In this document: positions 16,099-47,523 of the stretch, one piece after another
How the letters are laid out: every line of letters starts with the position of its first letter
How positions within the stretch are numbered: position 1 is the first letter of the stretch
Assembly: GCF_001949145.1 (NCBI RefSeq)
Contig: NW_019091480.1
Location: 1,151,235 to 1,205,260, forward strand
Direction: 5' to 3'
DNA from: Acanthaster planci
Taxonomy: Eukaryota
Length of the DNA: 54,026 nucleotides
Notes under the pieces: generated by a model
Seen by the model: only the letters and a program-made list of their open reading frames with translations
The model's database searches: none
What the model was told of the DNA's origin: nothing
Translations under genes and position numbers: made by a program

Positions 16099-16192
16099 CC
16101 CAGATTGTAAGAGATGATTTGGGTGATGTCAGTAAGATTTGAACGTTTATCCCTTGTTCAGCACCAAACCAATTTTCTTTTTGGCTTTGCAG

Positions 16193-19021: not shown

Positions 19022-19140
19022 GTACACGCTCTAGATGATTTCTTCTGGCTCTCTGCAGTTGACTTCGCAAGGCCAACTCGCATTCGGCAAATAAACCTTC
19101 TTGTCCATTTTGTTTTCATATTTTGACATCTCATCAACAG

Positions 19141-19332: not shown

Positions 19333-19814
19333 GTACTGGTCTCTCGGTGTGTTAAATAAAACTTTTACTCATTCGAAGTGAGGTTATGGAATATTCAAAT
19401 GTAATCCAGTTTGGGAGATGGATTATCAAAAGTTTCCCAAGATATATGAAAACATTTTGAAAGACCCATTGTTTAACTTGTACTTGCTGGCAGAATCTAG
19501 TACTAAAATCTTATGATTTTGACTTTGTTCATATTCCATTATTGTCAACCTCATTCTCCTGTTTTGAATCTCTAGCAGTTGGCTTTAGCAAAGTAGAGGG
19601 AAATCATTTCTAGCTGCATATTTCCCTTTCAGAGTCTCTTGGTGATTTTGTGATTGCAATCACTCTTAATATCTGTCACATCTAGATGACTATTTGTCAT
19701 GACTATCCCAAATTTGCCTTGTTTTTCTGTCGCAACCCTTCGAACAGCTCAAAAAAAGGTATAAGGCAAGAAGTTTTGAAACTCACAACATATCTTCACC
19801 TGTTCATTGGTCAG

Positions 19815-19972
19815 CTTATCAAAGACGTAGTCAGCGTGAGCGAGACAACTAACTGGTCGCAGCGGAGCAGTGTAGAGTCCAAGTACAGAGCCCTACGCTG
19901 TCACATCAGCTGCTTACCCGACAACCATCCCCACTACTACGATGTCAAGAACTTCATTATCTCTACACAAGG
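19815..19972 (+). CDS. PARP4: PARP4 exon 9. Translation: LIKDVVSVSETTNWSQRSSVESKYRALRCHISCLPDNHPHYYDVKNFIISTQ(G).
   Basis: The acceptor is cattggtcag and the donor is gg|gtatga, ending in phase 2. KYRALRCHI matches human AKYRALRCKI. Confidence 0.85.
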
Positions 19973-20710: not shown

Positions 20711-20848
20711 GAAGAAGCTAGCTGAAATCCTGCGCGTCTTTGCTGTGACGCGCCCTTTAGAGTTAACTAGCTTTGATGCCAAGCTGCACAACAGTCGTCT
20801 GCTGTTCCATGCATCCCGGCCAGCTAACTTTGTGGGCATCCTTTCAAG
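20711..20848 (+). CDS. PARP4: PARP4 exon 10 (start of the PARP catalytic domain). Translation: (G)KKLAEILRVFAVTRPLELTSFDAKLHNSRLLFHASRPANFVGILS(R).
   Basis: The acceptor is ctttgaag and the donor is caag|gtcggt, phase 2 in and phase 2 out. The NAD-fold His motif LLFHASRxxNxxGIL matches PARP LLHGSxxxNxxGIL. Confidence 0.85.
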
Positions 20849-21460
20849 GTCGGTACAAGTCCCAAAGCAACACTGTGCACCAGATTCAAGAGAGTGGAAT
20901 TCTATTCAAATCTTGGGAATGAGCTTGTCCAAATTTCAATGGAGGATAGAATATGCCACTTGTGTAAAACTTTGCTTGGTTATACGGATACACAGCACAC
21001 ACGTTCTTTGCAAGTTATTTTTTTAGCTGTTAACAGTTTCTGTACTGTTGTCGAGGGATTGTCAGTCTTGTGTCCTCATAGGCATGGTATAAATTTGTAA
21101 GTGAATTTCCGCCACTGATTTGCAAAATAGGAACCCTCAAAGAAAACTTGAGGAAACTCACCGATTGAACCAATAAAGCATTGCCCAGTTTGTCAGTGCC
21201 TTTTTGCTGGAGAGTCAGTACTTTCCGCACCTTGCTTATGGGCCAGATGTGCACTGAAAATGTGCATATGGAAAGGCCTCTTCAGTTTGCAAGCGTTACT
21301 ACCCCTGGTTTCTATGCAGTCAGGGACCACATCCAAGTTTGTGATGTGGTAGAGGGAGGGAATATGTATTGTGGAAATGAGTTGTAAATCAGTAACTATT
21401 TCAAGGAGCTCATTATGATGCGTTGTATAATGGTGCTGCTGGTTGTGTCAATGCCAACAG

Positions 21461-21559
21461 AGGCCTTATCCTGCCCAAGGTGGTGGTGGATGACTTTGGC
21501 GGGGAGAGGACGGATGCTGGCATGCTGGGCAGTGGAATCTACTTCGCTGACAACTTCAG
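21461..21559 (+). CDS. PARP4: PARP4 exon 11 (PARP catalytic domain). Translation: (R)GLILPKVVVDDFGGERTDAGMLGSGIYFADNF(S).
   Basis: The acceptor is gccaacag and the donor is cag|gtattt. The GSGIYFAD motif carries the catalytic Tyr. The peptide matches human GLLLPKVVEDRGVQRTDVGNLGSGIYFSD. Confidence 0.9.
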
Positions 21560-21815
21560 GTATTTCCTCCTGAAGCATGATTTTTTTTTTAATTTGATAC
21601 AAGTTTGAGCAAAGATATGGTAACCGTGGCAGCCTCTAAGAAGGCACTACAAAACCTGCTCTTTGAGCCCTGCATGAAGTTTAGGAAGTGAAGATTGAGC
21701 ACCGAGAGAACTAAATTTGAGATGGAAGAGACCGAGAGCAGTGTCATAATCGATTCTGTCAGAAGTCCTTACAAGTCCATCACAAGGCAATCAGTTGGTG
21801 GCAGATTCAAGTACT

Positions 21816-21948
21816 ATTCAAATGAACTATGACAAAAGCATTCCTGTGTTATTGTAGACCCTGTTACTTGAAGTCTTAAGTAACTTAGGACTTGAAGTAA
21901 CAGGGTGAACAATAACACAGGAATGCTTTTGTCATATTTCATTTGAAT
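21816..21948. mobile_element. Near-perfect palindrome of 133 bp (arms about 62 bp) in the intron between exons 11 and 12, a foldback/MITE-like element
   Basis: The left arm attcaaatgaactatgacaaaagcattcctgtgttattgtagaccctgttacttgaagtc is the reverse complement of the right arm gacttgaagtaacagggtgaacaataacacaggaatgcttttgtcatatttcatttgaat. The centre is ttaagtaacttag. Confidence 0.6.
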
Positions 21949-22289
21949 TTGATAATTTCTTGTGTCTCTGGAACTGTACTTGAAATTAGCTGCCAGTTTG
22001 ACTTCTCTGCTAGCCACAGAATAATATTGTGTTATGCACTCATGATCGCTTTTCGTGCTTTAATGCAGGACTTGCCAAGAAACTCTGTACACTCCCTGGA
22101 ATCCTTGCAAAAAATATGCATGCGCATAATCTGTGATTCCTTCTTCACCATAAAACAGGACTCGCGTCAGCAAAGAGCAACAACGTACCAAGCGTACATG
22201 TATTGTCTTTCAGTAGTGTGACAAAGCCACGTAATTGGGCCTTCGATATCCTTACATGAGATGATTTCCCTTTTTCTTTTCAACCACAG

Positions 22290-22473
22290 CACCAGCGCCA
22301 AGTACTCCCACATCAGCCACACTCGAGGCACCCGCCTGATGACAATCAACCAGGTGGCCCTCGGGATATGTTATGAGACAACCAGCTACCATAAGGACTT
22401 CACCGAACCCCCGGATGGCTTCCATAGCGTCCACGGGGTCAGGAATGATGGCTCCAATCGTTCCGATTTCAAG
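22290..22473 (+). CDS. PARP4: PARP4 exon 12 (PARP catalytic domain). Translation: (S)TSAKYSHISHTRGTRLMTINQVALGICYETTSYHKDFTEPPDGFHSVHGVRNDGSNRSDFK.
   Basis: The acceptor is caaccacag and the donor is aag|gtgact. The peptide matches human TSIKYSHPGETDGTRLLLICDVALGKCMDL...PPGYDSVHGVS...TDFE. Confidence 0.9.
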
Positions 22474-23177
22474 GTGACTGCGTATGCACACTGTTTTCTG
22501 TCAGTGAAGAACTTACATGTAACTGGCGATCTTTTCAGAGCTCATTTGTTTTCTTTAGTTTGAAATTTTGGGTGCTGTGCAGCCTAGTGGTTCAGGTTTG
22601 TGATAAGGATCATAGAGTCAGGGGTTCGAATCCAACAGCTGGTTACATTTTGTCCTCTCAGGTCTATGGTCCTTATTGAAAAATTGCAATAAAAGGTCAT
22701 TATTAAAAAAAAATAGATTTGGTTAAATTTGAAGTATATTGGCTCCAAGAACTAGTTGTACAAATACAACAGCCTCGGACATGTTTTGTTCCAGATAAAT
22801 ATTATTTTCCAGCTCAGAATCAGGGCCTTAGTGTGTTGCCCAAAATCATTTGACTGTCCTAAGGACCTTTTATTTACTGAACCAACGTCGTGACCTCGGG
22901 CAAGTGACTTTTGTGCTGTGTTTCTTGAAGCACTGAAATAGACCAAAATGGAGAACCGTGATTTGTCAGCTGCACCACAAAGTGACGGACCATCCATAGA
23001 CTTTATACACACGGTACGACAGGTTGTGGTGCTGGAACTATCCATAGTTCGTTAGTTCGTTATGCATCCGATGACTTCAAGCCGTTTGCTTTGTCCAGTC
23101 AGAGTGCAAACAAACCTTTACCAGTCAGATCTGTCCCGTTCCAAAATCTCATCGTTCAGAGGACTTTAATCCTGCAG

Positions 23178-24624: not shown

Positions 24625-25417
24625 GTGAGCATAAATGAACACTTCAGGAAACAGGCACACAAATTTAGCCACGCTTGGTGGAAAAATGTTGACAATTTAG
24701 TTTCATTCTTGAAAGAGTGAGCTAAATATATGTATGTGGCAATTTATTGGGAGGGACGTCATTGTACAGGAGAGAGTTTGTCTCATGCCAGTGTGTTTGG
24801 TTGCATGGGTGTGTATAGGGGGCTTGTGGGGTACCGGAACAATGGGAAGTACCCCATAGGGTACTTGTGGGGTACTGAGATGGTACCCCAAGGATTTCAT
24901 GAAATAGATATTTCAAACGTACTCAAAAAGAAGGAATTTTCAAGTGCCATTCATCTGTCACAAAATGGAGAATTTCAAATAAGGGACGTTCAGTCAAATT
25001 TCTTAAGTAGGAAAGTCAATCTGGTTCAAAATGGGAGTGATTTTAAGATTGTTATATGTTGTGTGGGAGTTTTGTACACGAGAACAAAGGAAATACCCCA
25101 CAAGTACTGTATGTGTGTGTGGTTGGGTGGGCGTACAGGTGTGTCTGTGCTTTAATGATTCAACGCAGACCGTTGATTAGCAAACACGATCCAACTTTGC
25201 CGACTGTGTCCATGTTTGTGTTAGTCGCAGAATGTTACCAGATGGCTGTCTGTCATCTCAGACTGATCAGTGATGCTCTCTGTGTCGCTTTATGCCAATT
25301 CGGAAACCAGGCTTCAGAGCCTTTAGACACGTTAGAGCACATACAAGTGGAGTTATTGAGCACTGTCACACATTTCCCCTGGAAAGCTACATCTCTCATT
25401 TCTTCCCAAACCCCCAG

Positions 25418-25636
25418 GTTGTCGTACTTCAAGTGTACGCAAATGACAGCGATTTTCCCATAGAAGCCAAGTACGTCTTCCCGCTGGATGAGCAGGCGGC
25501 AGTTTGCGGCTTTGAGGCCTTCATCAATGACAAGCACATTGTGGGTGAAGTGAAGGAGAAGGAGACTGCCCACAAGGAGTACAAGGAAGCCATCAGCAAG
25601 GGGCATGGCGCCTACCTCATGGATGAAGAAAAGCCA
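25418..25636 (+). CDS. PARP4: PARP4 exon 15 (VIT domain). Translation: VVVLQVYANDSDFPIEAKYVFPLDEQAAVCGFEAFINDKHIVGEVKEKETAHKEYKEAISKGHGAYLMDEEKP.
   Basis: The acceptor is aacccccag and the donor is cca|gtaagc. The peptide is near-identical in pattern to human VIVFQTYTNKSHVPIEAKYIFPLDDKAAVCGFEAFINGKHIVGEIKEKEEAQQEYLEAVTQGHGAYLM. Confidence 0.93.
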
Positions 25637-26241: not shown

Positions 26242-26444
26242 GATGTGTTCACTGTGAGTGTGGGCAACCTCCCTCCCAAGACCACCGTAGTGATCAAGAT
26301 CACCTACGTAGCTGAGCTGGCCGTGGATGGGGACAAGATCCTCTTTGGCCTGCCGGGGAGCGTGGCGCCGTGGAGGAAGGACGAGGCCCTGGCCCAGGAG
26401 ACGCAGGCCGACGTCACCACGGTCAAAGTCAAAGACACCGACAG
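26242..26444 (+). CDS. PARP4: PARP4 exon 16 (VIT domain). Translation: DVFTVSVGNLPPKTTVVIKITYVAELAVDGDKILFGLPGSVAPWRKDEALAQETQADVTTVKVKDTD(R).
   Basis: The acceptor is ccctccctcag and the donor is acag|gtcagg, ending in phase 2. DVFTVSVGNLPPK..IKITY..VAPW matches human exactly in those motifs. Confidence 0.93.
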
Positions 26445-27207
26445 GTCAGGCAGTACTCTTTGATGCAGACAATATTAAAGAGTCTAGCCCCAGTGTGACT
26501 TGTATGTACTTGATATAAAGATGATGCTTTCCTTGATGGAGTGCTAGAAGCATGATATGGGTGAGTCACAATACAGTTTGCCACCAAGAGGTCACAGAGA
26601 AGCCTTTCTCAAAGACCACCTTCGGAAACAGTCTGCACATTTTACTTGCCAGCTGTGAACAGAGAACTTTTCTCGATTTTTGGGGGGTTTGGATGGAAGA
26701 TTTAAAGTGTAATTTGAGTATTACTTTAAATGTTTTTGTCATACAACAGAAAACTCTAAAAATGTGACAAATTTCCATGGATAAATGCCTTTGTTTTTTG
26801 TTGACTGCAAACTTGGATTATGGCATCTCCATGCCAGTTTCTTGGGAGTGTACTGTTTTGTGAATTGCCCATATTAGCCACCTAACCCTAATTAAAAACA
26901 TAAATATACCATATATCAAAAAGGGAAAAAGTGCTTTAATGATTTTTGCCTGATGTTTTTCATCATCTTAACCGAAAATGGTTCCAAGCCATTTGTGTTA
27001 TTCTCAGTACATCGATAATGAATTCTTGTGTATTGGTTGATAAACATTTTCACCATTTTTGTTCTGCATCTGCCATCTAATAGATTTTGGCCTACGTGTC
27101 CTTTTGAAATTCAGCATGTTTAAATTTATAATTGTATCAAAGGATCTTCTCAAAGTACATTTAGCTGTGACAGCTTGGCTGGACATTGTGTGTGCTTTCC
27201 AATCTAG

Positions 27208-27919: not shown

Positions 27920-28030
27920 TTAATGTTTTTCTTTCTACTCCTGATTGTCTACCGGTTGATCATAAAAATTTTTGGTCAAAGTGTTTGTTTTTCTGCACAT
28001 GCTGTAAAAATTAAGTTTTATTTCTTACAG

Positions 28031-28361
28031 CAAACTGCCAGCAAAGCAACTGTCTGCCTTGCAGATGACTGCCTGGGACTGGACGACGGCTTCCAGCTCC
28101 TGATTGGCCTGGCAGAGATCCACGTGCCCCGCATGTGGGTGGAGAGACACCCCGAGGACAGTGACAGCCAGGCCTGCATGCTGACCTTCTACCCGGAGTT
28201 TGAGGCCGAGCAGACCGACCAGTCGGAGGTGGTGCTCCTGCTGGACTTATCCAACTCAATGCGGGGAGGGAGCAGCCTGCAAGAAGCCAAGAAGGTTGCC
28301 CTCCTCGCCCTGCATCATCTGCCCAAGGACTGGCGGTTCAATGTCGTTGTTTTTGGAACAG
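28031..28361 (+). CDS. PARP4: PARP4 exon 18 (start of the vWA domain). Translation: QTASKATVCLADDCLGLDDGFQLLIGLAEIHVPRMWVERHPEDSDSQACMLTFYPEFEAEQTDQSEVVLLLDLSNSMRGGSSLQEAKKVALLALHHLPKDWRFNVVVFGT(G).
   Basis: The acceptor is tttcttacag and the donor is acag|gtatac, ending in phase 1. The peptide carries the vWA DxSxS-type motif (LLDLSNSM). It matches human HIGLSAAYLPRMWVEKHPEKESEACMLVFQPD...SEVIICLDCSSSMEG...IIQFGTG. Confidence 0.93.
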
Positions 28362-28677
28362 GTATACAAATTTCACTCTTTCGGCAAAGCACATTTTTTG
28401 TTTTACTTTCAATGGGAAAACAAAAAATGTGCTTGAAATCTGAATGTGACCGACGACTAATAATAAGACGACTTTTATTGGTTTCTGCTGCTAGTAATTC
28501 TCAATAAGTATGTATCCAAAATATTGACTAAACTCAGTAAAATTATGTTCTCTGTAATGTTAGATAAAGATAAAGATGACCACCATATCTTGCCTTAGAT
28601 TAAGACATTGGGTCCCGCGACTGACCAAAAAGCACCATTCATGCTTCTGAAAGAAGGTGACATTGGCCGTTTTCCAG

Positions 28678-28936
28678 ATTTTGAGGAGCTGTTCCCACAG
28701 AGCCAAGCCAAGACACCAGACACTGTGAAGTCGGCTACCAACTTTCTGCAGGGCTTATCTGCTGCCATGGGCAACACCGACGTCTGGCACCCCCTGCGGA
28801 CCTACTTCATGCTGAAGTCAGGCCAGCTGTGCAACATCTTTATCATCTCGGACGGCCACGTCAGTAACGAGGACGCAACCTTGGAGGCTGTCCGCCGGAA
28901 TTGCCGCCATACCAGGGTGTTCACCCTCGGTGTTAG
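28678..28936 (+). CDS. PARP4: PARP4 exon 19 (vWA domain). Translation: (D)FEELFPQSQAKTPDTVKSATNFLQGLSAAMGNTDVWHPLRTYFMLKSGQLCNIFIISDGHVSNEDATLEAVRRNCRHTRVFTLGV(S).
   Basis: The acceptor is gttttccag and the donor is ttag|gtttgt, ending in phase 2. MGNTDVWHPLR...ISDGH...RHTRVF matches human MGNTDFWKTLR...VSDGH...PHTRLF. Confidence 0.9.
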
Positions 28937-29508
28937 GTTTGTTCGGAATCCCCGTTGTGACAAAGTTTAATACATATCTGCTCACATGGCTGATTGATTT
29001 TTTGGCAAATTTCATTTTTGCATACTTTTCTCATGAAAACACAGACAACGTTTTAACTGATATGATAGCCCATATTATTAAGTTGATAGGTCAACTTTAT
29101 TTTTTCTTGTTTTTACAATTTTGTTATTGATAAGGAGACATTAGTTCGTAAATATGAAAGTCACTTTGTCAAACAGAAATTCTAGAGCGTTTGGCATATA
29201 TTTGTACACAGTGCGCCCATGTTCACAACGTGTAATATGTTACAGAACACAGAGCCTTGGAGACTATACATTGCCTATTTGAAACGCCACCGACATCTGT
29301 TGGATATGTCACTTTGTCAAAGTGCTAAACTGAGTTTGCACACATAGTGCAGTTGACAAACAGTTTCATGTTTGTACCAAGAAAAACAAACACTGAGCAT
29401 CATTCATGTTGTGAATCGCCTGTTTAGTGAGAGTAGGAGCCAGTGAAATAGGGTTTCCCCCGTCTGTGGATTTATCAGAACTCTATGTCGTCCATCTTTT
29501 TTTCACAG

Positions 29509-29608
29509 CGCCACAGCCAACAAGTATCTCCTTCGTGCTGTGGCCACTGCTGGGGCCGGAGCCTTTGAGTTCTTTGACAGCAAGACAAAGTCCAAGTGGG
29601 AAGGCAAG
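29509..29608 (+). CDS. PARP4: PARP4 exon 20. Translation: (S)ATANKYLLRAVATAGAGAFEFFDSKTKSKWEGK.
   Basis: The acceptor is tttttcacag and the donor is aag|gtcagt. The peptide matches human STANRHVLRILSQCGAGVFEYFNAKSKHSW. Confidence 0.9.
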
Positions 29609-30159
29609 GTCAGTGACTACACTATTTTATTCACGGTTTTAGGGATGGCTAGGGATGTGTCTATTACTTGCATATTCAGATATTCTGTGGGTTTATTTTC
29701 AAAATTGAATATTTGGATACGATAATCAATGTAATATAAAAGGGAAATTTTAATTATTCTGGTAAGAAAATGCATGCTAAAAGCATGTTGTGAGGTGTCG
29801 TAATAGGCTGTTTGAATATTTGATCCACATGGAAGGTTGAATTCAGTATCAGAAGCTGGTAAACTAATTTTCACAGCCAAGGACTTGTTTGTTATCCAGC
29901 CAAGAACCGGTTTGATCAGTTCATAAACACATTTTCCATAAGAAGCGTCTGTATGCCGGTATACTGACAATGACTGATGTGGAATTTGCAGTGGAGAAAT
30001 TTCCAGCTAATAGCTTAGGTCTTCAAGTCTTCAACCTGGGTTCTGGGTGGTGGGTCACATTTGTGTAAATGCCTGCGATTGTTCGCATTTGTTTTTTATG
30101 TAAACACAACGTACTTCCGATTTGCAAGTCTTTCCTTTTTTTTCCTCCAACACTGGCAG

Positions 30160-30330
30160 ATCAAATCCCAGCTGAGCAAGGCAGCCCAGCCTGTCTTGTC
30201 TTCTGTCAGCGTGGACTGGTGCCAGTTTGACGATGACGCCCCGGCTCCTATCCAGGCACCCAATAACATCACCTCCCTCTTCAGCGGTTCCCGGCAGGTG
30301 GTGTATGGCTTTGTCCCACACTGCACCCAG
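30160..30330 (+). CDS. PARP4: PARP4 exon 21. Translation: IKSQLSKAAQPVLSSVSVDWCQFDDDAPAPIQAPNNITSLFSGSRQVVYGFVPHCTQ.
   Basis: The acceptor is cactggcag and the donor is cag|gtattc. SVSVDW...IQAP...SLF...VYGFVPHCTQ matches human SVSVKW...LQAP...SLF..VYGFIPHCTQ. Confidence 0.92.
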
Positions 30331-30697
30331 GTATTCAATGAATTAAGTGCCTTTTTGGAGAAATCGTTTTCTAAAGGTGGCTTGGAACATTTCGCTTTAA
30401 TTTATGTCTTTAATTTATTTATGAACATGGTGTGGGTGTGTGTGAGTTTGTTTCTGCATTCGATTGGGGACCCTGAACAATAGCGGACAATAAGGTCCCC
30501 GACTGACAGAAGGTCCCCGATTGACAACTGTGTACAAAATATATGGGTGGTCTTCTAAAAAACGGTTAAAGTACAAACAAAAGAGGAACGATAGGGTCCT
30601 CAGTTGCAGGCAAATACACACTTGGGTGTGTGCTTAGTGTCAGGTAGAAGTGTAGTTCTGTTTATCGACACGTTTCCTCTCTGCATTCATTTCTCAG

Positions 30698-30778: not shown

Positions 30779-31543
30779 GTAATGGAAACAGACTTAGCCA
30801 GTGAATGGACCTCGAGTCGGAGCAAGAGAGGGCACTATTTCCTTCACAATGGAGGCTCCTTTGGTTCTAATTATGCGTCGCGAGCTCACGATCAACTGGG
30901 AAATGCAAGCGTTGCAGTCGCATTACTACCAGCAAAATGAATATTCCTGACGAACGTGGCTCTTGTCAACTGATGAGGGTGTGCTTTTGCTCGAGGCAGA
31001 TAGGAGTAACACGCACACTTATCCAAAGTTGTGGTTTGAGGGAGCACTGCGCACAACTTGACAGAAAGCAGTAATATTGCCAACACCATCTCCAACACGA
31101 TATCTAATTAGTTCAAAGCAGTTTTAATCACTGCAAACGAGGTGTAACTTTTGGCTGAAAACTCTATATTTTGAAAACAAAGATTCCTACTGATATGACT
31201 TCTTCGAGTCATTGACTCAAGATTTATTTGGCACCTTTTACCGCATTATGGCCTTTTACACATACTGAGGCAATGTTGTGGAGCAATTTATGACAATGCT
31301 TTGCCACAGTGCGTTTGTGTTTTAGGTAGATTCCATTGGCAAAAGCATTGGGGATCACAGAAGTGCAGGAATGACCCAGTGCTGAATACAGAAACTACCT
31401 TGGCATGCTTGCGAGTCCTTCCTGCTAGGTCACAGAAACTCGGTGCAGGTTTTACACATCCTCTGCAGGTGGTTTGAAGATGTTTAGAGTCTACTGTGTA
31501 GAAAGTTTCTGAAAGCCGGCCTCTCTGTTGTTCCCCATTCAAG

Positions 31544-31726
31544 ATATTGCATCAGCTGACGGCCCGGAACATCATCCGTGACTGGGAGGAGGGCGCCCTC
31601 GCAGCTGACCGCACCCGGCACGAAGCTCGTAAGGCCGAGCAAAAAAGCTACATCATCGAGCTGAGCAAGAAGTACTCCATCGTCACCCAGTTCACCAGCT
31701 TCGTCGCCGTGGAAGTCCGAGACAAG
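31544..31726 (+). CDS. PARP4: PARP4 exon 23. Translation: ILHQLTARNIIRDWEEGALAADRTRHEARKAEQKSYIIELSKKYSIVTQFTSFVAVEVRDK.
   Basis: The acceptor is ccccattcaag and the donor is aag|gtcggg. ITQFTSFVAVE is identical to human. The peptide matches human MIHKLAARALIRDYEDG. Confidence 0.92.
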
Positions 31727-32513
31727 GTCGGGCAGAGGGATAATCTCTAAGCTCTTGTTAAACTGATATGAAACCTTCACAGCTTCTCAAAGCTGGTATT
31801 TGATGACGTGGCTTTGTTATTTTGTAGACTTTTTGTGACTAAGGATGCACAGAAATATCTCATATCTGTGTGAACCAAAGATCCAAACTCTTTGTTTTGT
31901 ACTCCTGAAAATAAACTTTTTACGGGCAATTCATCACTTGTTGGAACCCTAGGGCATATTCTTTGTGCTTCCGTAAAATTAAAGTGACCTAGAGGGCCCA
32001 TTCTACATAGAAAAGTGGTAAAAAATATTAAATGCAGCGGAATCCTGTGGGACTGTTAGTACACTGAGGGCGAATGAATCTCGCAGCTGGGCAATAAACC
32101 GTAGCGTTTACATATCTGAGCGACTTTTCTGTAATCTTCAATGGGACATTTCATTCTGGCAAATTAGGAGTCTTGTTTGGTGTGATGTCACAGACTGACA
32201 TATAGACGGTTTATTAAAGTGAAAAAAGGTGTACCTTTGTCATGCTTTGGATACTTTCTGTGCACGTTGGGCTAGAGTACTACTGACGAAAATCATCTGC
32301 AAAGGGATTTGCTCATTGAGGAGATTTCTACCTTAAACTATACAAGCATTGTGTGGCATTTTGTTCTCTGACAACACTTTCTGTCGTCACTCGCTTCTAA
32401 ATGTGCCTTTATATTGGTCCTTTAATCATGACTGGAGTTTCTTTCTTAGTCCTACAAAATCAGCCAAAACTTTCTGCTGGAGTTAAAAAGTCTTGTAAAT
32501 TTTTTTTTTGTAG

Positions 32514-32636
32514 TCAGAAGAAGGCAAGGTCAAAACCGGGGTGGACGTGAATGACCTGTTGAAGAAAGAAGAGGTGGACTCGTTGCCTTACTTAGGCTGG
32601 CAGCAGGACAAGGCCCAAGATGCAGCAGTACCAACG
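32514..32636 (+). CDS. PARP4: PARP4 exon 24. Translation: SEEGKVKTGVDVNDLLKKEEVDSLPYLGWQQDKAQDAAVPT.
   Basis: The acceptor is tttttttttgtag and the donor is acg|gtcagt. VDSLPYLGWQ matches human VDFLPYMSWQ. Confidence 0.8.
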
Positions 32637-32968: not shown

Positions 32969-33124
32969 ACCTTGGAGGAGCAAGCAGGGATAGCTGAGTT
33001 GCTGGACCAAGCAGAAAGAGAAGTTTCTTTTTCTGTCCTGAGAACTGAGAGATTATACCAGCAAATCCTAAAGAAACTGAATGACTCCCGTGACAAATAT
33101 AAAAAAGATCCCGTGCTTCAGAGG
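32969..33124 (+). CDS. PARP4: PARP4 exon 25 (variable linker region). Translation: TLEEQAGIAELLDQAEREVSFSVLRTERLYQQILKKLNDSRDKYKKDPVLQR.
   Basis: The acceptor is cctttttgtctag and the donor is agg|gtatat, phase 0 in and out. Similarity to the basic human stretch LRLSKRKHRKIPFSKRK is weak, so the call rests mainly on ORF, splice sites and phase. Confidence 0.5.
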
Positions 33125-34150
33125 GTATATATAGTTTTGTTTTACATTGATGTAGATTTTTATAACAACAACTGATGATGAGGTCTGCGAATATGATAGG
33201 ATAAATACAGGTGTGTGGGGGGGTGGGGTAAAGGTGACTTCTCTCTCCCCCTGTCCTACAGGAAAAATGCAAAAACCAGGAAAGGGGAAACAAGGGAAAG
33301 AAATGGGTTAAAAGGGAGGACAGACGGATAAAAATCACCGGTATGCATGATAATAACTCAGAATGGATCCCTTCCATGATTCGTCAGTTTGCTGGTGATG
33401 AAGACTTTGTCTCCCCACCCCCCCAAAAAGAAAACAAAATCTGGCAGTACCACTACGATGAAAAGAGGTCCGATTTGAAAGGGTTTTGGCATTTCTTTCC
33501 TGATTTTATTTTCTATGGAGAGTGGGACATTTTTCTGGGTAAAATTGTATCTCCAGTGGTTTTTATTGGAGACATTTCAGACACCAAAACTTTTTTCTAA
33601 ACCTTGAGTATTTTCTGAATTTTCTTGTGTTGTGCATTAAGCAGACATTACACACTACTGCCCTATTCTGGGTGGCCCCCCTCAACAAGAAACCTGAAGT
33701 AAAGGGTTAATTTGCCACGTTGTGTGCTGTATAACCCTGTATTTGTTGCAAGCCACGCTTCCCTGAGCACCATATCATTGGAAAACGGTGTCAAAGCCCA
33801 ACAAAGGAATGTTGAATATAGTTTTCACAACAAAACTACCACCAGGCCATGTTTGATATACAACCGTACCAGTAGTGTCATAGTCTAAAAGTCGGTTTTG
33901 GTATACCATTTTGCAAACAGTGGTCCACATTGAAGTATGACAAAACGAATGCCATCATGGTATTGTTTTAAAGTATTTTGCTCCTACTTTATGACAGACA
34001 TGATTATAGTCGTACAGCACATATCTTGGCTGCTTCAGAATTTTTTTTTTTCTGGAATTGGAATGAGATCGTCGCACCAACTTTGGTACAGGCGCATAGT
34101 TAAAAATGTCGCTAATATGACTTTTTTTGGTGACTGTTTTTCTCCAACAG

Positions 34151-34205
34151 GTGGTTCGGCAAATGCAGGATTTTTGTGTCAACGTGAAGCACGAGGACTT
34201 CTCCG
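34151..34205 (+). CDS. PARP4: PARP4 exon 26 (candidate micro-exon). Translation: VVRQMQDFCVNVKHEDFS(D).
   Basis: The acceptor is tctccaacag and the donor is ccg|gtattt, phase 0 in and phase 1 out. The phase-1 exit is needed to bridge exon 25 to the well-supported exon at 34685. Confidence 0.35.
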
Positions 34206-34684
34206 GTATTTTGCCCATCTCTCTGCACAAATTCCTCATGTAGCCATACACCCCACGAGGTCTATTCTGTCCTGTCTGTTTTGGTGTCATGTGAAATTTG
34301 GGAGTCCAGAAAAAATGGTCTCACTGGCGGCGATGCTCATGACAAGACATTGACCACAATCTTCCACATGTGGAGTAATGAGAGTCCTTCCAAGGGAAAG
34401 GAAATCGTATTCCAAAGTCCATGTTGTCGTTGTCAAACTATATCATGTTTGGAATTTAATATTCAAATTTCATTTAATTGCTGGTGCTTTGTGGAACTGG
34501 AAGTGGTTTTTTTTTTTACTTAATGTTTTTGTAATTAGCGCTTGTGATATAATGTAACTCCTGTTGGTCAGCTTATGATGTGTGCTTTCATAGAATTGTC
34601 CTTAGTTATCACTCCTTATGTTTGTTGCGGACACTAAGTTGTCTTTTTTTCTTCTCTGCTTTGTTTTGGCTTGGGGGTGTGCAG

Positions 34685-34759
34685 ACTGGATGGACACAAT
34701 GACAGATGATATTGATGTGTCTGAATTGTTTGAAGATACGCCCGTGCTTGCTTTTGTTG
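34685..34759 (+). CDS. PARP4: PARP4 exon 27 (acidic stretch). Translation: (D)WMDTMTDDIDVSELFEDTPVLAFV(G).
   Basis: The acceptor is gggtgtgcag and the donor is ttg|gtgagt. DVSELFEDTPVLAFV matches human EVSEDFEEDGLGVLPAFT. Confidence 0.6.
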
Positions 34760-36238
34760 GTGAGTCACTAATTTTGGACTTCAGTCAGTTTGACTCCCCA
34801 GCAGTAATCAGTTTGTTCCTTTGTGTTGGACCCATGGGGGCTGGATGGCGGGCAGCCTCACTGTGTCCTGCGTAGGACACTTGACCATTTCCTGTTATGC
34901 CTGCATTTAGTCCTATATTGCTGACATGGAAGGTTGGTTAAACTAAAGAACATGAATTGGAGTAAGAGCTGAAAAACTATTTGAACAATTTACCCATTTC
35001 TGGTGGTCGATGAGAGCCCATGATTGTACATGTGTGTGTGGTACTTCCTAATCACTTCTCGTTACATGGTTAATTAATTGTGTTTTGTTACTTTTGTCTT
35101 GGGACTCTACTTGACAAGCCATACCTTTTAGAGGCTTCCATCCACTGCAGCACTGTATTGCTGCTATGAAACGGTTCATATGGGAAATAAAGCGAAGGTG
35201 AAGTGAATATCAAATGGATGACAAAGCCAAAAAGGTCTGCTTCCGATTACGATTACGTGCCTCTCAAAAATTGGGTCAGTGGGTCAAGGAAAAAATTGGT
35301 GAGGGGGGTCTTTTTTGTACTGATTAAATGGGGATGGAAGCTATCAAAATTGCCACAAAAAGTGATAAAAACTTGTCTTAATCAGCGCAAAAATTTCCAC
35401 AATTGACAATTCTGGCGAATTATGGACGAATCACACCACTGTACACAACACTAGTCAGGTACACACGACAGGAAACTGGCAAACAAATGTCCGTATATCG
35501 TGTGGTAAGTGTGTGTGTGATGCATGTAGAGGGGTGGGCAATAAACCTCGTGCTGCGGCAGGAAATTTTGTCTAGACAAGCTTGCATCAACTATGAGCAA
35601 TATAGTCTCAAAAACATGTAAGCCTTTTGCGAGTTGAGTTCGAATAAAACCTAAACACTGTGTTAACTCATTGCACATAAACATAACAATTTGAATTCCC
35701 CACACTAAATACACTGTTGCTTTACATCGTGATTTGGGGCAAGCTTTTGCATAGCGACCGCCATCTCTGGAATGGACTGGTTCCCTTGTGCCCTTCTTGT
35801 CCATTGAAAACAGTGTATTGGTGCAATGCGTCTCTTATGTAACTACTAAGGAAAAGCGTTCACGTGAATTGACTCGAGAGTACCAGTTTTTATTCAGATT
35901 TAACTCGCGAAAGGCATTAACATCAATGTTTTTCCATGTGCAGCTGTAGAGCAGTGTGTGTGTACGGTGTAGTGCAATAATTCTATTTTGGCTTGAATGC
36001 ATCGATTGGTTACAGCAGTTTCCTTCCATCATTACCACAAGTTCCCTTCTCATTTCACTATCGCAGTAGTCGGGTATTGAAAACTTGTTGGCATTGTTGC
36101 ATAGCAACATGTTTAGCATTGTAGCACTCTGCATAGTGGTGTGAACTAAGAATTCTCAACTGTACATATTTTTACAATGGCACTCTTTGATAGCTTTGGC
36201 CTCCTTTCAGTCAAGATGATCTGTATTTTCTCTTGCAG

Positions 36239-36271
36239 GTGATGCATTTTATAGCTCCCCGGAAGAGGAAG
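36239..36271 (+). CDS. PARP4: PARP4 exon 28 (candidate micro-exon). Translation: (G)DAFYSSPEEE(G).
   Basis: The acceptor is ctcttgcag and the donor is gaag|gtaagt, phase 1 in and out. It is a phase-neutral cassette, so it could equally be an alternative exon. Confidence 0.3.
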
Positions 36272-38641
36272 GTAAGTCTTAATTGATTTCAGTTTTCTGA
36301 GCAGTAGATGCAACTTGTATATTCATTGATGCTTTTACATTTACTTCGGTTTCAGTGTTTCAGATTTTGAAATGGGGTGTCAAATTACTTGTGGTGGCAA
36401 ATCCATTCTTAGATGTCTTTATTCCACTGAACTGTCACTGTAATCATCACGTTTTCTGTGTGTCCTGTTGACATGAAGCAGGTTGAACTTGTTGACTACT
36501 GCACTTGATTTCGTAGGGTGTTTCTATAGTATGCATACAGGTACTCTTCAGGTTTCTATTGGAGCACAATTGTTTTACAGATGTACACCCTTCACACTGC
36601 CAGCAGCGTATTTGTTGTGTTTTTTGGTGATGCCGGTGTATTCAATTTAATAATAACAATAATTTTTTATAAAGTGCGCTCCATAAAAATTATCTCAGAG
36701 CGCTATACAATATACACTACAAACTATAACACCCGATAGGCCCTAATTAAAAATCATTACATATTACAAACTACAGGGATCAATTAAATAAAACAATGAT
36801 TATTTAAAAATCAACATAAAACTTAATTCACTAATTTACATTACAATAACCTTTTATTTTCCTTAAGTATACTCATAGTGGCAAAATCCATACACCTGTT
36901 ACCACTAGTATACTTGTAGTCGGCAGTCAGCATGTTAATAACAACTATCTACTTCTTTGTTACAGACTGGATAAATATGACATTGGAATGTGTTGCACCA
37001 GAGATACCTGAAAGCCGTGAGTCAATGGCCCATTGTTTTTTCGTCACAGATCCTGCTCCGGATCATGGGATCTATATCTGTGCAAAAACAGGCAGACCCG
37101 TTCACAAGCACATCAGATGACATTGATGACTGAATATATATTATCGTACGGCATTTATTTCACATTTTGGAGACAGAATGTCTGTGGTACTGTGTACATG
37201 TTCCAGGAACATCAGATCAGATGTAATGTTCCGTAATTGCAAAGTGCATTCTAAAAGAATTCTGAAGACATGCGGTAAGAGAAGTTCATTGAATGCTTTA
37301 AATCTACAAAAGAAACTTCTTGTTTCTCTCCGTCCATGGCACACGCTGCCAGCTTTAATCTTTCCCAGCCCATCTTGCAAGTTGGGCCCCTTAAAATGTA
37401 ATCCGCAGCAACTATTGCTGCGTCGGATCAGCAATCATCAATCAGGATTGCAGCAAGACAAACCAGACCATTGATTTTGAATGCCGGTTAGATTCTCACA
37501 CAGTGGCCCAGCCAGCGCCCTTTCCGTGGACTGATGAAGATGACAGTGGCTCATGCATGGCGTGGGTTGTGATGCCATTTTGTTTCCAAAATGGTTTTCC
37601 CTTTATTTATTAATTGTAAACTGTGCTCACCCATTAAGTTTGTAAAGCCAGTGCAGCTTTTTGTGGGCAATGTTACTAGGGCGCTGGGGCTGAATTCAAA
37701 TTGGGAGATCAGCTTTGGGCTGGGCACTGCACCCTGTTGCTTCTGAACAGAGTTGATCTTTAATCAACTCCGTCAGTTCTGAGTTGGTGAAGGGTGTCTC
37801 CCCTATTTCACATTAAATTTCTGATAGCCCGGGCAAAACGTGATGGACCTGTGGACTAAACGCACAGTAGTGCTCCATCCATCCCCAAGACAAGTTGAAA
37901 TTACAAATCTTGTTGCTTTCTTCTTTTTCTTTCATATTGAACACAGTGATGGGTAGCCATATTAGTCAGATATCAACAATGAAAATATATGCAGCACTTT
38001 GATGACCAACTAAGGTCCATTTTTGCATGAGCTTTCATAGCAATAGATACTTCATTAGATGCAATGACATAATCATCACCTGTTGTCTAGACCATCATAC
38101 AGGGCCTGTATTATACCTTGCCTAATGATGTTTACTGCGTTGCATCTGATGAAGTAGTTGTGCTATGAAAGCTTATGTAGAATTTTACCTTTGCTAGTCA
38201 TTAAAGTGATAAATACATGTATCATTTTTCCATTCATTTTCAAATGCAAGCCTTTTTTTAACAGGTCATTCCTGCAGGATTTTGAGAATTGTCATGTCAG
38301 TGTGAAGCAATTTTCATAATTAATAATATTTTTATACTGACCATCTTCTTTTTTGGGGGGGGGCGTGTGAAACATGTCTGCATGGGTTGGTGGTAGTCAC
38401 AGGACACACTCTGTTGCATGTGTGTTACCAGGGTAGGGGGAGGGGAAGAGGACTTTTTTTTTAAATACCAGGGAATGAACCCCTTCCACCATTAATGGTT
38501 CATCAGTTTGCTCTCATTAGGACAAAAGTCCTGCCCCCTAGAACATGTCCTAGCAACGCCCATGGTCTATTTGCCGTCGCGCGTGTTGAACTTTGAGTGT
38601 ATTCATTCATTATTCACCCTATCTCTTTTTTGCCTCAACAG

Positions 38642-38785
38642 CGAGCTATGTACCCACTTCACCGTCTTTTATGGGTGCGTCAGATCCTTTTGCTCGAATT
38701 GGGTACATGAGTGATGATGATGAGGAGTATTTGGAGCCAAGCGCTGAGGAAAGTTACGATTTGGATGAGGATAAGTATGAGAATG
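38642..38785 (+). CDS. PARP4: PARP4 exon 29 (candidate acidic exon). Translation: (A)SYVPTSPSFMGASDPFARIGYMSDDDEEYLEPSAEESYDLDEDKYEN(D).
   Basis: The acceptor is tgcctcaacag and the donor is aatg|gtgagc, phase 1 in and out. The peptide is in frame with ORF 38593..38871. Confidence 0.45.
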
Positions 38786-39339: not shown

Positions 39340-39411
39340 ATGAATCAGAGAGCTCTGAAGAGGAAATGGAGCGGGATCTTTTCCTCTTGGAGGAGGAAAA
39401 ACAAGCACTCC
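39340..39411 (+). CDS. PARP4: PARP4 exon 30 (candidate acidic exon). Translation: (D)ESESSEEEMERDLFLLEEEKQAL(L).
   Basis: The acceptor is ttctttcaag and the donor is ctcc|gtaagg, phase 1 in and out. It joins in frame to the large exon at 42537. Confidence 0.4.
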
Positions 39412-42243: not shown

Positions 42244-42536
42244 AAGCACTCCTGTTTCACTTCTCTACTCCTTTGAATTCAGTGCCTGAGATCAGACTTG
42301 TAGCTCGATTGGGAATGCCTAGTGTCGCAGGCTTGTTTGCCTCCAAATGACAGATGAAAAGTGTTGGCCATAATCCCAAGCGCCTGATTAATCAAAGTTA
42401 CATGTATGTAGCCTTGTTTAAAAAAGCAAAGAGCTCAAGAGCTGAATTTGCTAAGGCTGGATTCCTGTGCACGCTCCTTTAATCTGGCAGAATCACTTGT
42501 GTAAACCTTCTCATTCTTGTCATACACAACTTACAG

Positions 42537-44234
42537 TGTCTATACGACCAAAAGAAGCAGCTCCCCCTGCACATGCTAAGGTCTTGGTGGAAGATGTGGT
42601 AAACACCGGTTTCTTCACCTCCACAGGACAGCAACAAACACAGCAACAAGAGCATGCAACGGTAAATTTGCTTCCGGGTCTGTCCTTTAAAGCAGTTGAG
42701 CATTCCCTGGAACCTGCAACCTATAGAAGGTTGTCCTCTCCACCCTCAAGCCGACGAGCAAAGGGAATATCAGAACAGGCTATAACGCCTTCTACTCCAG
42801 CCGCTGGATACTCCTCACTAGACTCAGCGTGGGGCGGGCAGCCCCGAGGCCTTCCCGGAATGATGGGAGAGTTCTTGGGAGACACTGAATCAGCTGATTA
42901 CCTGGTAAGATCACAAGTGGCAGGAGGGTTTTCATTTGGAGCAGCTGCCTCTGCTGCAGCAACCCCAAGTTTTGGAAGTGCTGGTCCCCAGGCAGTGGGT
43001 GATAAAGCCACATCTTCAGATGTTACACCAAGAGCAGAAGCCGCATCAGGGTTCTCATTTGGTGCAACAACCTCCACTACCTCATTTGGTGGTTTTGGAA
43101 GTGCCCAGCCTCCGTCACTGGCTGATGAGTCTTCATTTGCTGATTTCACACCAAGGGCAGTAGCAGCGGCAGGATTCTCATTTGAAGCATCAGCCCCCGC
43201 TGCACCTTCCATGACTTTCGGAAGTTTTCAGCCTCCACCCACGGCTGCCATACCCACAGCCACCTCTGCCCCAGCAAGACCTGGCTTTGCTGCCTCTGGT
43301 ATGTTTGGACAAGCAGCTCCGGTGGCAGCTAGCCTTCCTAGGCTCCCATTAGATACCGGCGTCATGATAGGAATTACTCCCCCCCTTCCAATTAATGCCC
43401 AGCAAGCTGTTCCACCCCCACTCCCATTAAGAAGGGCTGTCCCAGAGCTTCAGCTGGCAAGTGACAAGGTGTGCCCCAAAATACTCCCTCTACCCACACT
43501 TTCTGTGTCGGTCCTAGAGCCTGAAGCACAATTTGTTGCTTCATTTACATGTACGTCAACCCAACCATGTGAGATGAAGAGAGCGTCAAAGCGACGGGCT
43601 GGTAAGAAACCAGAGGCAAAAAAAGTCAGTCCACTCCATGGACGTAGAGCACAAGATTCCAAGGAATCACCTGAACCTGCTACTGGTTTAAAAGTGGCCC
43701 GGAGTACAATGGGCACAGTGAAATCTGCAGTGATTAGTGAGGAGGGCGTTGCTCTAGGAAAACGTCCGGGGCCCATTCAGCAGAGGAGAAGCCTACAGAA
43801 AGATACAGCCAGAGCCAAGATGGATGAGCCGTGTGAGAGAGAAGCCCCAGCAAAACTCTGGGCAACAAAGAAAAAGAAGAAAGGTTACATGTTACCGACC
43901 TACAGTATATCTCTGGAGTCAGGCAAAGCAGAAGATTACATTTCTGAGGAGGTTGGTCTTTCTTTTGAGGATGCTTCAGTCCTGACAGAAATGGCAGATG
44001 GCCAAGATGAGATGGAAACATCTGCTGCATTCGATTGGCAAATAGTCCAACGTCGAACTGAAAAAAAGAGAGGACGGGAAGCCAGCGCTGCTGTTGGCAA
44101 GGGCCGACCCTGTGATGATGAACTGCCCCCAGCAGTCCCTCCCAGTCAGATGGCCAGGGACCATGATGCAATGGATGACCAGATAAGCGAAGCCATTAGT
44201 GCGCCACTGGGCTTTGAAGCAAGGGAGTCATCAG
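42537..44234 (+). CDS. PARP4: PARP4 exon 31, a giant exon (about 1.7 kb, about 566 codons). It encodes a Ser/Ala/Pro/Thr-rich low-complexity region with three tandem repeats of about 40 aa carrying GFSFG(A)...SFG motifs, followed by a Lys/Arg-rich and acidic segment.
   Basis: This is the 622-aa ORF 42467..44335. The acceptor cttacag at 42535/6 gives a phase-1 entry (L)SIRPKEAAPP.... The donor tcag|gtaagt at 44234/5 gives a phase-1 exit that is exactly what the well-supported next exon (GFRK...) requires. Human PARP4 has an analogous low-complexity region (SLSFASYRQVASFGSAAPP...). Internal gtaag-like sites at about 42620 and about 42905 mean the true 5' boundary could differ. Confidence 0.65.
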
Positions 44235-44599
44235 GTAAGTTCACCTCCTCTGCCGAAGCCACCCTGACATCTGTCAGGATTTTAGTGGTTGTCCAGGAAG
44301 ATTTTTCATTGACTAAAATAAATAAAGCCAATTAGTTATCATAAAGAGAAATAAAGGAGTTTGTTTTGTTCAATATTGCTCAACTTCTGAAGCCACTTTG
44401 ATGTTTGTCATGGTCTGAATAGTTGACTTAAGAGAATAATGGGCTCCAGTTTGTTCACTCTTGCTTCTTGAAAGAATGGCCAACTTCACGTTTATTATGT
44501 ACTCTTAGAACAACTTCCATTTGTCAATTAATTATATATTTTTTGCCCTGCCCGACGTGTATTATCACACTGTGTACTCAGTGTTTGCCCCCAAACGCT

Positions 44600-45428: not shown

Positions 45429-45528
45429 GATGGGTGTTGGGACCTGTTTGCGGGCATTCAGGTGTTCGTTGGGGTCCGACTGAAGCCAGTCAGGAACCTA
45501 CTGAAGGAAGCTGGATTGAACTCGCTAG
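45429..45528 (+). CDS. PARP4: PARP4 exon 33. Translation: DGCWDLFAGIQVFVGVRLKPVRNLLKEAGLNSL(G).
   Basis: The acceptor is aacttgcag and the donor is ctag|gtaagt. LLKEAGLNSLG matches human FLKQKGIQSLG. Confidence 0.8.
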
Positions 45529-47278: not shown

Positions 47279-47523
47279 GGGAGGAGGTCGCTTTAAAAAT
47301 TGAGCGGCTAGTGGCCACCTACCTGGTCATCCTGTACCTGAATTGCTTCTTGGAGGGCCCGCGCACTCCCACCATCGGCCCCCAAGAGAGGGAGATGATT
47401 ACCCAGTCTGTCCTGAAGGCAGAGAGGTTTGTTAGCCAGGTGGAGAGCGAACACCCGTCCCTGGCTCGGCGCCTGGAGTTGGGGAGCAGCTGGGACGAGG
47501 TCTGCCGGGATATCTTCAAGTAG
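47279..47523 (+). CDS. PARP4: PARP4 exon 34 (last coding exon, including the TAG stop). Translation: (G)GEEVALKIERLVATYLVILYLNCFLEGPRTPTIGPQEREMITQSVLKAERFVSQVESEHPSLARRLELGSSWDEVCRDIFK*.
   Basis: The acceptor is gcaaatag, phase 1 in. The peptide is contiguous with human SLGVKGRECLLDLIATMLVLQFI...ICPRLELGNDWDSATKQLLG. The TAG stop is at 47521-47523 and AATAAA follows at 47550-47555. Confidence 0.85.

Follow-up and report, generated by a model that had tools for sequence, protein, structure and literature searches.

The window analysed here is a 54,026-nt stretch of Acanthaster planci DNA (contig NW_019091480.1, positions 1,151,235 to 1,205,260), eukaryotic in character with a GC content of about 0.42, whose plus strand carries an ordered series of exons between 13.0 and 47.5 kb. 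Judged by its sequence matches, the gene formed by these exons is an orthologue of PARP4, the poly(ADP-ribose) polymerase (PARP) of vaults, and one giant exon within it encodes three tandem units bearing Phe-Gly (FG) motifs of the type known from nucleoporins. What vaults, which are abundant and conserved cages, do in the cell has been an open question since 1986, and PARP4 is the only vault enzyme that has long been known. A first-pass annotation of the window had reported tandem units of about 40 residues at 42915–43330 within a giant PARP4 exon, had likened them to nucleoporin repeats and had taken them for a lineage-specific expansion of which human PARP4 keeps a vestige. We are highly confident of the identity of the gene, the coding status of the array, and the homology and conservation of the FG module.

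The FG units form a true tandem triplication in coding sequence (3 × 123 nt), with a decayed fourth copy after it. Each of the three in-frame units at 42899–43267 is 41 residues long and bears a GFSFG or GFSFE core and a second xFG motif: U1 (YLVRSQVAGGFSFGAAASAAATPSFGSAGPQAVGDKATSSD, 42899–43021) has GGFSFG at 42923–42940 and PSFGS at 42965–42979; U2 (VTPRAEAASGFSFGATTSTTSFGGFGSAQPPSLADESSFAD, 43022–43144) has SGFSFG at 43046–43063 and TSFGGFGS at 43079–43102; and U3 (FTPRAVAAAGFSFEASAPAAPSMTFGSFQPPPTAAIPTATS, 43145–43267) has AGFSFE at 43169–43186, where glutamate replaces the glycine of the core (FSFE in place of FSFG), and MTFGS at 43211–43225. The fourth copy (APARPGFAASGMFGQAAP, 43268–43321) was read directly from the sequence; these features, like all those of the gene described below, lie on the plus strand. 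The canonical cores amount to two FSFG, one FSFE and one PSFG, and the spacers between FG cores, which span 3–41 residues, abound in Ala, Ser, Thr, Gly and Pro. FG dipeptides number 7 per 145 residues against 1.7–1.9 expected from composition, an excess of about 4-fold that was reached in 0 of 5000 shuffles in one test and gave p = 0.0014 in another.

A repeat search of the window DNA recovers three copies with a start-to-start spacing of exactly 123 nt, 69–76% identical over a 45-nt core and 72% identical over 110 nt, and base identity at a lag of 123 nt is 0.54–0.61 against a maximum of 0.43 among 2000 codon shuffles. The peptides quoted in the first-pass annotation are present in the plus-strand frame, their periodicity exceeds that of every shuffle, and the interval assigned to them covers the array correctly. 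Tandem Repeats Finder reported no repeat in the region because the copies are too diverged, whole units being only about 60% identical in DNA and 37–44% in protein; this divergence in turn points to an old in-frame duplication and not to a microsatellite. An origin of the repeats as a microsatellite artefact was rejected, given the period of 41 codons, the roughly 60% identity of the copies and the retention of frame. A gene on the minus strand was also rejected, as the 104-residue antisense open reading frame (ORF) at 42898–43212 mirrors the repeat and has neither splice nor homology support. The ratio of nonsynonymous to synonymous differences (pN/pS) between units is 0.67–0.80, which neither proves nor excludes constraint.

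The array lies in an ORF of 622 residues (42467–44335), the longest in the window by 3-fold, the next-longest being 197 residues. The giant exon within it (42537–44236; 1700 nt, 566 codons) encodes the PARP4 linker, predicted to be disordered, that connects the ITIH-like region to the MVP-interacting domain (MVP-ID), and is delimited by an acceptor cttacAG/tg at 42535–42536 and a donor CAG/GTAAGT cut between 44236 and 44237. Downstream it joins the first MVP-ID exon (DGCWDLFAGIQ...LNSLG, 45429–45528) in phase 0 and then the terminal MVP-ID exon (47279–47523), which ends in a TAG stop at 47521–47523 with AATAAA about 30 nt beyond it. Upstream, two acidic exons at 38642–38785 and 39340–39411 join it in phase 1, the second (DESESSEEEMERDLFLLEEEKQAL) having a phase-1 donor that preserves the frame. 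These five pieces form one open frame of 753 residues with consensus splice sites. Residues of the disorder-promoting class make up 70%, the Uversky charge-hydropathy plot fails to separate the linker from the folded exons, and the FG region has 8–11% charged residues and much Ala, Ser, Gly and Phe. An AlphaFold2 model of the giant exon has a mean predicted local distance difference test score (pLDDT) of 39, with values of 28–36 over the repeat units and no secondary structure in residues 1–499; it was built from the single sequence with no alignment, and it fits disorder but is weak evidence for it. On the 3' side of the array the translation reads through a proline-rich stretch (PPLPINAQQAVPPPLPLRR, 43379–43435) and two basic clusters, one resembling a nuclear localization signal (NLS; KRASKRRAGKKPEAKK, 43577–43624) and the other TKKKKKG (43865–43885).

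The assignment of the gene to PARP4 comes from the exons around this linker. Queried with the plus-strand exons, the databases returned proteins of sturgeon, Ciona, Lingula and others that bear the name poly(ADP-ribose) polymerase 4, and tblastn and tblastx gave a colinear exon series at 13.0–32.6 kb. When the concatenated window exons were compared with the PDB by phmmer, full-length human PARP4 (11jf_P, 1724 residues) was matched with E = 7.8e-67 in five colinear stretches, namely the catalytic domain (450–484), VIT (695–776), vWA (824–920), the ILHQLTAR...FTSFVAVE exon (1122–1185) and the MVP-interacting domain (1581–1702, from the two exons 3' of the giant exon). Since its flanks map to human residues 1122–1185 and 1581–1702, the giant exon corresponds to the human stretch from 1185 to 1581. 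At the domain level, Pfam scores VIT at 87.8 bits on 25415–25636, VWA_2 at 26.8 bits on one exon, and, short of its cut-off of 21.3, BRCT at 19.3 bits (E = 0.0013) on exon 13922–14182 alone, which shares 36% identity with the BRCT exon of another PARP4-like locus, L005. The catalytic exon at 21456–21584 matches human PARP4 450–484 and proteins carrying PF00644, and taken alone it gives no Pfam match. The two MVP-ID exons align to human residues 1581–1702 (E = 2.7e-5 for the stretch) and also to a segment of locus L009 whose product is flagged PF26156 (PARP4_MVP-ID); a Pfam scan gave no PF26156 match in the window, with a copy of Pfam that misses this family even for L009. The location of the units inside a giant coding exon of the vault PARP gene, as first proposed, is borne out by the splice consensus, the in-frame joins and the matches of the flanks to human PARP4.

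Using the giant exon itself as query, we found no homologue by word-indexed search, by a full HMMER scan of 1.84 billion representatives or among metagenome contigs; phmmer against the PDB gave chance matches only, and BLASTP of the window linker against that of Lingula was not significant (E = 0.063). Linkers were instead located in other organisms by reading the DNA that follows their conserved PARP4 exons, and scanning metagenome contigs for a degenerate pattern based on the conserved exon yielded 45 loci. No linker information was obtained from Ridgeia (L003) and Solemya (L004), where repeats make the gene too long for the linker to be reached, from Acipenser (L006), which is interrupted by runs of N, or from L011 and L012, whose contigs end early.

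In Lingula anatina (L002) a 664-residue open frame follows the vWA exons at 15317–17311 and contains 12 FG, including GFTFGA and PFTFGA, with poly-Pro and Lys-rich stretches after the FG cluster. L009, an animal locus on a 562-kb contig, has a 565-residue segment at 14388–16082 with GGFTFGD, KGFSFGY and GFGFGS, next to its PARP4_MVP-ID segment, and the L018 linker (13667–16213) has 16 FG, including SGFSFGS, SGFSFGG and FGFGFG, with the MVP-ID downstream. FG-rich segments also lie just downstream of the conserved PARP4 exon in L019 (9765–10988) and L034 (2937–3926). All five loci have a giant exon in the same place with a GF[ST]FG/xFG cluster and then Pro-rich and basic stretches, and the order FG then Pro-rich is common to the window, Lingula, L009, L018 and L034. 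In Lingula (p < 2e-4) and in L009 (p = 4e-4), too, FG exceeds what composition predicts. Across all the DNA collected (1.0 million six-frame residues), GF[ST]FG has 10 matches, and nine of these fall in PARP4 linker exons, at six loci. The only other match is NDGFSFGGA at position 3388 of the window (plus frame), in a short open segment that has no coding support and was taken as chance. In L034 (2937–3926) we also noticed five tandem Pro-rich units, PQPSxHLFGLPGPPPPP, 5' of GFSFGH/GFGFGA, another lineage-specific expansion; this is the segment of L034 that exceeds the Pfam Nucleoporin_FG cut-off.

The Lingula and L009 linkers show no periodicity at the DNA level; what the orthologues share is thus the FG cluster, and only the lineage of the window has the 123-nt triplication. 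The idea of a lineage-specific expansion accordingly stands for the triplication, but does not extend to the FG motifs as such, which form clusters in the corresponding linker of no fewer than five further PARP4 orthologues (Lingula, L009, L018, L019 and L034). A multiple alignment resolves a bipartite module, GF[ST]FG[A] followed by 8–10 small residues and [SG]FGSAxPP, and of the window copies U2 is the nearest to the human, Lingula and L009 modules, aligning to Lingula with p = 0.006 and to L009 with p = 0.004, in both cases less strongly than to the human sequence.

For the human protein, residues 1122–1659 were read from PDB HMMER alignments using X-padded anchors. U2 aligns to human PARP4 1329–1365 (TARAHSPASLSFASYRQVASFGSAAPPRQFDASQFS) with a score of 57, compared with 28–31 ± 5 for shuffles, and the human peptide at 1340–1353 (SFASYRQVASFGS / SFASYRQVASFGSA) is a recognizable homologue of this unit. 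The vestige that the first-pass annotation had mentioned, SFASYRQVASFGSA, is indeed found there in the equivalent linker (about 1186–1580, 395 residues), which has 2 FG and no enrichment (p = 0.2–0.3). It follows from the U2-human and multiple alignments that the module is ancient, with one decayed copy kept in human and three and a half in the window; on this comparison of sequences the FG module is an old possession shared by distant PARP4 genes. The human and window linkers have in common their position in the protein, the module (one copy at 1329–1365 in human), NLS-like basic clusters and Pro-rich stretches. They differ in that the human copy is single, has a decayed first core (LSFAS), shows 2 FG per 395 residues and has no tandem repeat. 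In the literature the human linker is held to be intrinsically disordered and to evolve fast (PMC10450202), it corresponds to unresolved density in the vault lumen (PMC12280208), putative NLSs have been noted at residues 1237/1244 (PMC2169495), and both positive selection at 1504–1521 in primates and a possible site of viral cleavage have been reported (PMC10450202). The structural papers treat it as featureless (PMC10450202, PMC12280208).

To gauge the resemblance to nucleoporins we compared the array with human Nup62 residues 1–143 (PDB 5ijn_H), which has GF[NTV]FG cores, Ser/Thr/Ala/Pro spacers and the same FG density, with 6 FG and 5 FxFG per 143 residues against 7 FG and 2 FxFG per 145 residues in the window. 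Of the known patterns it comes closest: common to both are GF[S/T/N]FG cores with a small residue after them, nearly uncharged spacers in which Ser, Thr, Ala and Pro abound, an FG roughly every 20 residues and no predicted structure. Nup62, unlike PARP4, is a pore component; it is Thr-rich and 1% charged whereas the window array is Ala-rich and 8% charged, and the window array is short with a regular 41-residue period whereas a nucleoporin FG domain is long and irregular. Among the orthologues, the linker of L034 matches Pfam Nucleoporin_FG with 33.4 bits (cut-off 32.2) and that of L009 reaches a sub-threshold 14.9 bits; the FG region of L018, searched alone against the PDB, gave no match. No nucleoporin domain or pore-anchoring domain was found in the window protein, which consists of PARP, VIT, vWA and MVP-ID and a probable BRCT. 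Repeats of this kind do occur in proteins outside the pore, such as the germ-granule GLH helicases of Caenorhabditis elegans, which probably contact the FG phase of the pore; these resemble the window protein in having a short FG array in a non-nucleoporin and differ in their FGG core, their family and the lack of a vault context. The likeness first proposed therefore survives as FxFG cores of the kind seen in Nup62 but not as detectable homology: as far as the sequences allow, the resemblance is one of motif and composition (Nup62-type), and PARP4, which is not a nucleoporin, may nevertheless work like an FG repeat.

The linkers of other PARP4 genes hold, besides FG clusters, copies of further host proteins. 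In L018 a near-exact copy of the histone H3 tail, residues 1–38, lies at 13820–13936 (E = 7e-10 against PDB H3) and a second, partial one at 14093–14149, both in the same 849-residue open segment as the FG repeats. L014 is a single ORF of 2006 residues that holds PARP, VIT, vWA and MVP-ID and, in its linker, an N-terminal/D-loop fragment of actin (about residues 5–70; 4056–4271; Pfam Actin 46 bits); an actin-like piece recurs in L018 (13313–13516), L019 (9704–9953), L026 (760–891) and L005 (14162–15548). Tails of the ribosomal P-stalk are found in the linkers of L014 (SSEDDMGFGLFD, 4455–4490) and L018 (ESDDDMGYGLIDDD, 14237–14290; Pfam Ribosomal_60s E = 5e-4), with a similar EEDNDMGFGIM in L034 (2970–3002). 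L019 has a synaptobrevin-like SNARE motif (VVDVLQAMRDNIEAVMNRGERLDSLIDKTEDL..., 10263–10394; Pfam 33.1 bits, cut-off 26.4), to which Lingula has a weak counterpart (LSNLMERSEELQSMSASFALNA, 15455–15541; E = 0.054), and SPSYSSTSPSYSPTSPS in L018 (14462–14515) resembles the heptads of the RNA polymerase II C-terminal domain (CTD). One such heptad, YVPTSPS, occurs in the window exon 38642–38785; the pattern Y.PTSPS is found once in the six-frame window compared with 4 matches in 300 shuffled windows. Two fainter likenesses to the P-stalk tail were noted in passing, one in human PARP4 (EDFEEDGLGVLPAF, about 1262–1275), which may be a decayed version, and one in the acidic window exon 39340–39411 (...SESSEEEMERDLFLLEEE), which has an acidic ...EEEMERDLF stretch. 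At the sequence level, these copies in orthologous linkers, which set several of them apart from that of the window, suggest that the linker displays host-peptide baits or decoys.

We propose that the FG module would act as a nucleoporin-type short linear motif (Nup62-like FxFG), a multivalent bait on a flexible tether that the C-terminal MVP-ID anchor would fix to the inner vault wall. By analogy with the FxFG cores of nucleoporins, each Phe-x-Phe-Gly core would make a weak hydrophobic contact with FG-recognizing proteins, candidate partners being importin-beta- or NTF2-type transport receptors, or else factors directed at nucleoporins. With 3–4 cores on each chain and many PARP4 chains in one vault, such contacts could add up to avid capture beside the PARP catalytic domain, and the FG cassette may be one of several interchangeable host-peptide cassettes of PARP4 linkers that differ by lineage. 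The whole statement, the coding triplication together with the bait mechanism, is put forward tentatively, with chances that we place somewhat short of even.

Several observations weigh against it. The array has only 2 intact FxFG cores and 7 FG in total, far fewer than nucleoporin FG domains, and the pN/pS values between units imply weak constraint outside the cores. Its alignment to Nup62 scores 80 against 62 ± 10 for shuffles (p about 0.05), Pfam PF13634 (Nucleoporin_FG) matches neither the ORF nor the FG region nor the assembled linker at E up to 10, and the PDB search with the giant exon found no nucleoporin. The motif has decayed in human PARP4, with its 2 unenriched FG, and the compact PARP4-like genes L005 and L013 have no FG cluster, so that any role of the module must be dispensable in some lineages. 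The strong non-FG cassettes occur in orthologues, whereas the window shows only the FG units and one CTD-like heptad: a PDB scan of plus-strand open segments at 32.6–42.5 kb (the first 3420 residues) found no copy of H3, actin or a SNARE, and tblastn with the actin-like fragment of L014 found nothing in the window. As to the gene model, the giant exon is predicted from the genomic sequence of this organism, and the phases fail to match across 33.1–38.6 kb: exons 32514–32636 and 32969–33124 end in phase 0, and the start of exon 38642 is in phase 1. One or more coding exons must therefore be missing from the model within 33125–38641 (5.5 kb).

The strongest competitor to the bait proposal, unlikely on balance, is that the linker serves as an immune decoy or tripwire, in which the FG units mimic nucleoporins and pathogen proteases or toxins attack the linker instead. 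Cleavage or modification there would signal the attack, either by splitting the PARP/ITIH-like body from its anchor in the vault or by activating that body. The histone H3 tail, actin, the P-stalk and synaptobrevin are frequent targets of pathogens, and it is copies of these that the orthologous linkers hold. A linker that evolves too fast to align, a vault partner, TEP1, described as a TIR-like NADase, and the positive selection and suggested viral cleavage site reported for primate PARP4 (PMC10450202) all fit such a role. On the other side, no cleavage site, protease or toxin is linked to the motifs, of the cassettes just the FG units and a single CTD-like heptad were found in the window, and a full-text literature search returned no paper proposing such a decoy in PARP4. 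NLRP1, CARD8 and the integrated decoys of plant NLRs (the concept is set out in PMC7857732, PMC8591160 and PMC13037943) are like PARP4 in having, within a multi-domain protein, a disordered, fast-evolving linker that copies other targets, host or viral. They are unlike it in their output, a CARD or FIIND as against a PARP in a vault, and PARP4 linkers are not known to have any cleavage, effector or downstream signalling, which makes the comparison one of analogy and not of membership.

A broader form of both ideas, which we offer as a speculation with the odds against it, sees the PARP4 linker as a modular display of host peptides (FG, H3, actin, P-stalk, SNARE and CTD) swapped or multiplied by lineage, and the vault as a cage lined with decoys or baits. 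If this were true, the peptides would detect or absorb the proteases and toxins of pathogens, or would trap the host factors that correspond to them, with the PARP4 catalytic domain and the TIR-like NADase TEP1 as the response and the FG units of the window as the nucleoporin cassette.

Docking at or transport through the nuclear pore, by way of transport receptors or the FG meshwork of the pore, was the function first suggested for the repeats, and seems to us distinctly unlikely. It would tether vaults or free PARP4 at pores, or aid nuclear entry together with the NLS-like basic clusters, and it can point to the Nup62-type FxFG cores and to the basic clusters of the giant exon. MVP, too, is reportedly involved in nuclear pore assembly (by the account of Vollmar, 2009). 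Vaults at nuclear pores were reported earlier still (Chugani 1993, as cited in a passage of PMC2169495), and the putative NLSs of the human linker fit the same picture (PMC2169495). In human vaults, however, the linker lies inside the lumen and is not exposed to the pore (PMC12280208), mammals, in which pore association was reported, have lost the motif, and the other cassettes of the orthologues are left unexplained.

To a similarly low degree we credit a passive spacer, a flexible tether of low complexity in which FG enrichment and triplication reflect neutral replication slippage or unequal crossing-over in a tolerant exon. Such a reading accommodates the pN/pS between units, the broken core (FSFE) and the decayed fourth copy, as well as the loss of the motif in human and its absence from L005 and L013. 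It sits poorly with the retention of GF[ST]FG in six independent and otherwise unalignable linkers when the motif is almost absent elsewhere in one million six-frame residues, with FG above composition in three orthologues (the window, Lingula and L009), and with a module recognizable from the window animal to human.

A cohesive FG phase, in which the FG stretches of many chains gel in the lumen and retain or exclude cargo, is very unlikely. The low charge (8–11%), the abundance of Ala, Ser, Gly and Phe, the predicted lack of structure and the confinement of many chains in one cage would suit it, but each chain has few FG cores, human vaults work without the motif and the Uversky plot is uninformative. 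That the array is not in the mRNA at all, being an intronic open frame, a pseudo-exon or part of a different gene, has next to no probability: the exon is predicted from genomic DNA and the sequence searches returned no homologue of the giant exon, but against this stand the 622-residue frame in a window whose next-longest is 197, consensus splice sites with in-frame joins on both sides, flanking exons that match human PARP4 1122–1185 and 1581–1702, and a giant exon of the same layout in the same place in Lingula, L009 and L018.

A conserved nucleoporin-type FG module supplies concrete, mutable motifs in a linker that has been treated as featureless, and the cassettes make two old ideas, the links of vaults to nuclear pores and to innate immunity, accessible to binding and cleavage experiments. 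Full-text literature searches turned up nothing relevant that connects PARP4 or the vault to FG or FxFG repeats, to decoys or tripwires, or to mimicry. Each kind of element, the FG repeat and the integrated decoy, is already known; an FG module in the vault PARP, beside copies of host peptides, is new.

The remaining exons of the gene complete its map. Colinear matches to PARP4 place a probable BRCT at 13982–14182, a regulatory, WGR-HD-like region at 18887–19970 and the PARP catalytic domain at 20727–22488. VIT follows at 25415–25636 and 26242–26454, from the Pfam and colinear matches, and vWA at 28019–28363, 28680–28943, 29498–29614 and 30145–30354, again from colinear matches. The conserved exon equivalent to human 1122–1185 (KILHQLTARNIIRDWEEG...FTSFVAVEVRDK, 31541–31729) is the last folded element before the linker. 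Next come the exon ...DLLKKEEVDSLPYLGWQQ... (32514–32636), equivalent to human ELIAKEDVDFLPYMSWQGE at about 1196–1214, and a predicted helical exon (TLEEQAGIAELLDQAEREV..., 32969–33124) with weak similarity to the exon in the same place in L009 and L013. The predicted acidic exon (x)SYVPTSPSFMGASDPF... (38642–38785) is the one with the CTD-like heptad; the 3' end of the gene is formed, after the giant exon, by the two MVP-ID exons, of which the first begins at the equivalent of human residue 1581 and the terminal one runs to 1702.

Among the PARP4 genes collected, the closest relatives of the window gene come from metagenome contigs: L011 (ENA ERZ26222911 ctg428028), with 72–96% amino acid identity over exons, and P0003 (ENA ERZ23498486, SOLA22-1 sample), with 74–90%. 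For named species the exons of Lingula are 56–77% identical, lophotrochozoans scoring higher, compared with 41–65% for sturgeon.

Elsewhere, an Rfam scan of the window found no RNA family, and no gene was recognized in its first 13 kb. Upstream of PARP4 there are two short tandem arrays, at 8623–8703 and 10015–10192, whose 16–17-nt units are mutually reverse-complementary (CAACTCGGACCCAAAAC, GTGGGTCCGAGTTGGTC); they stand about 1.3 kb apart and may be the ends of a transposable element. Between positions 1 and 5000 the six-frame translations contain runs of YMYMYM, HVHVHV and CTCTCT, suggestive of simple repeats of the hexanucleotide type.

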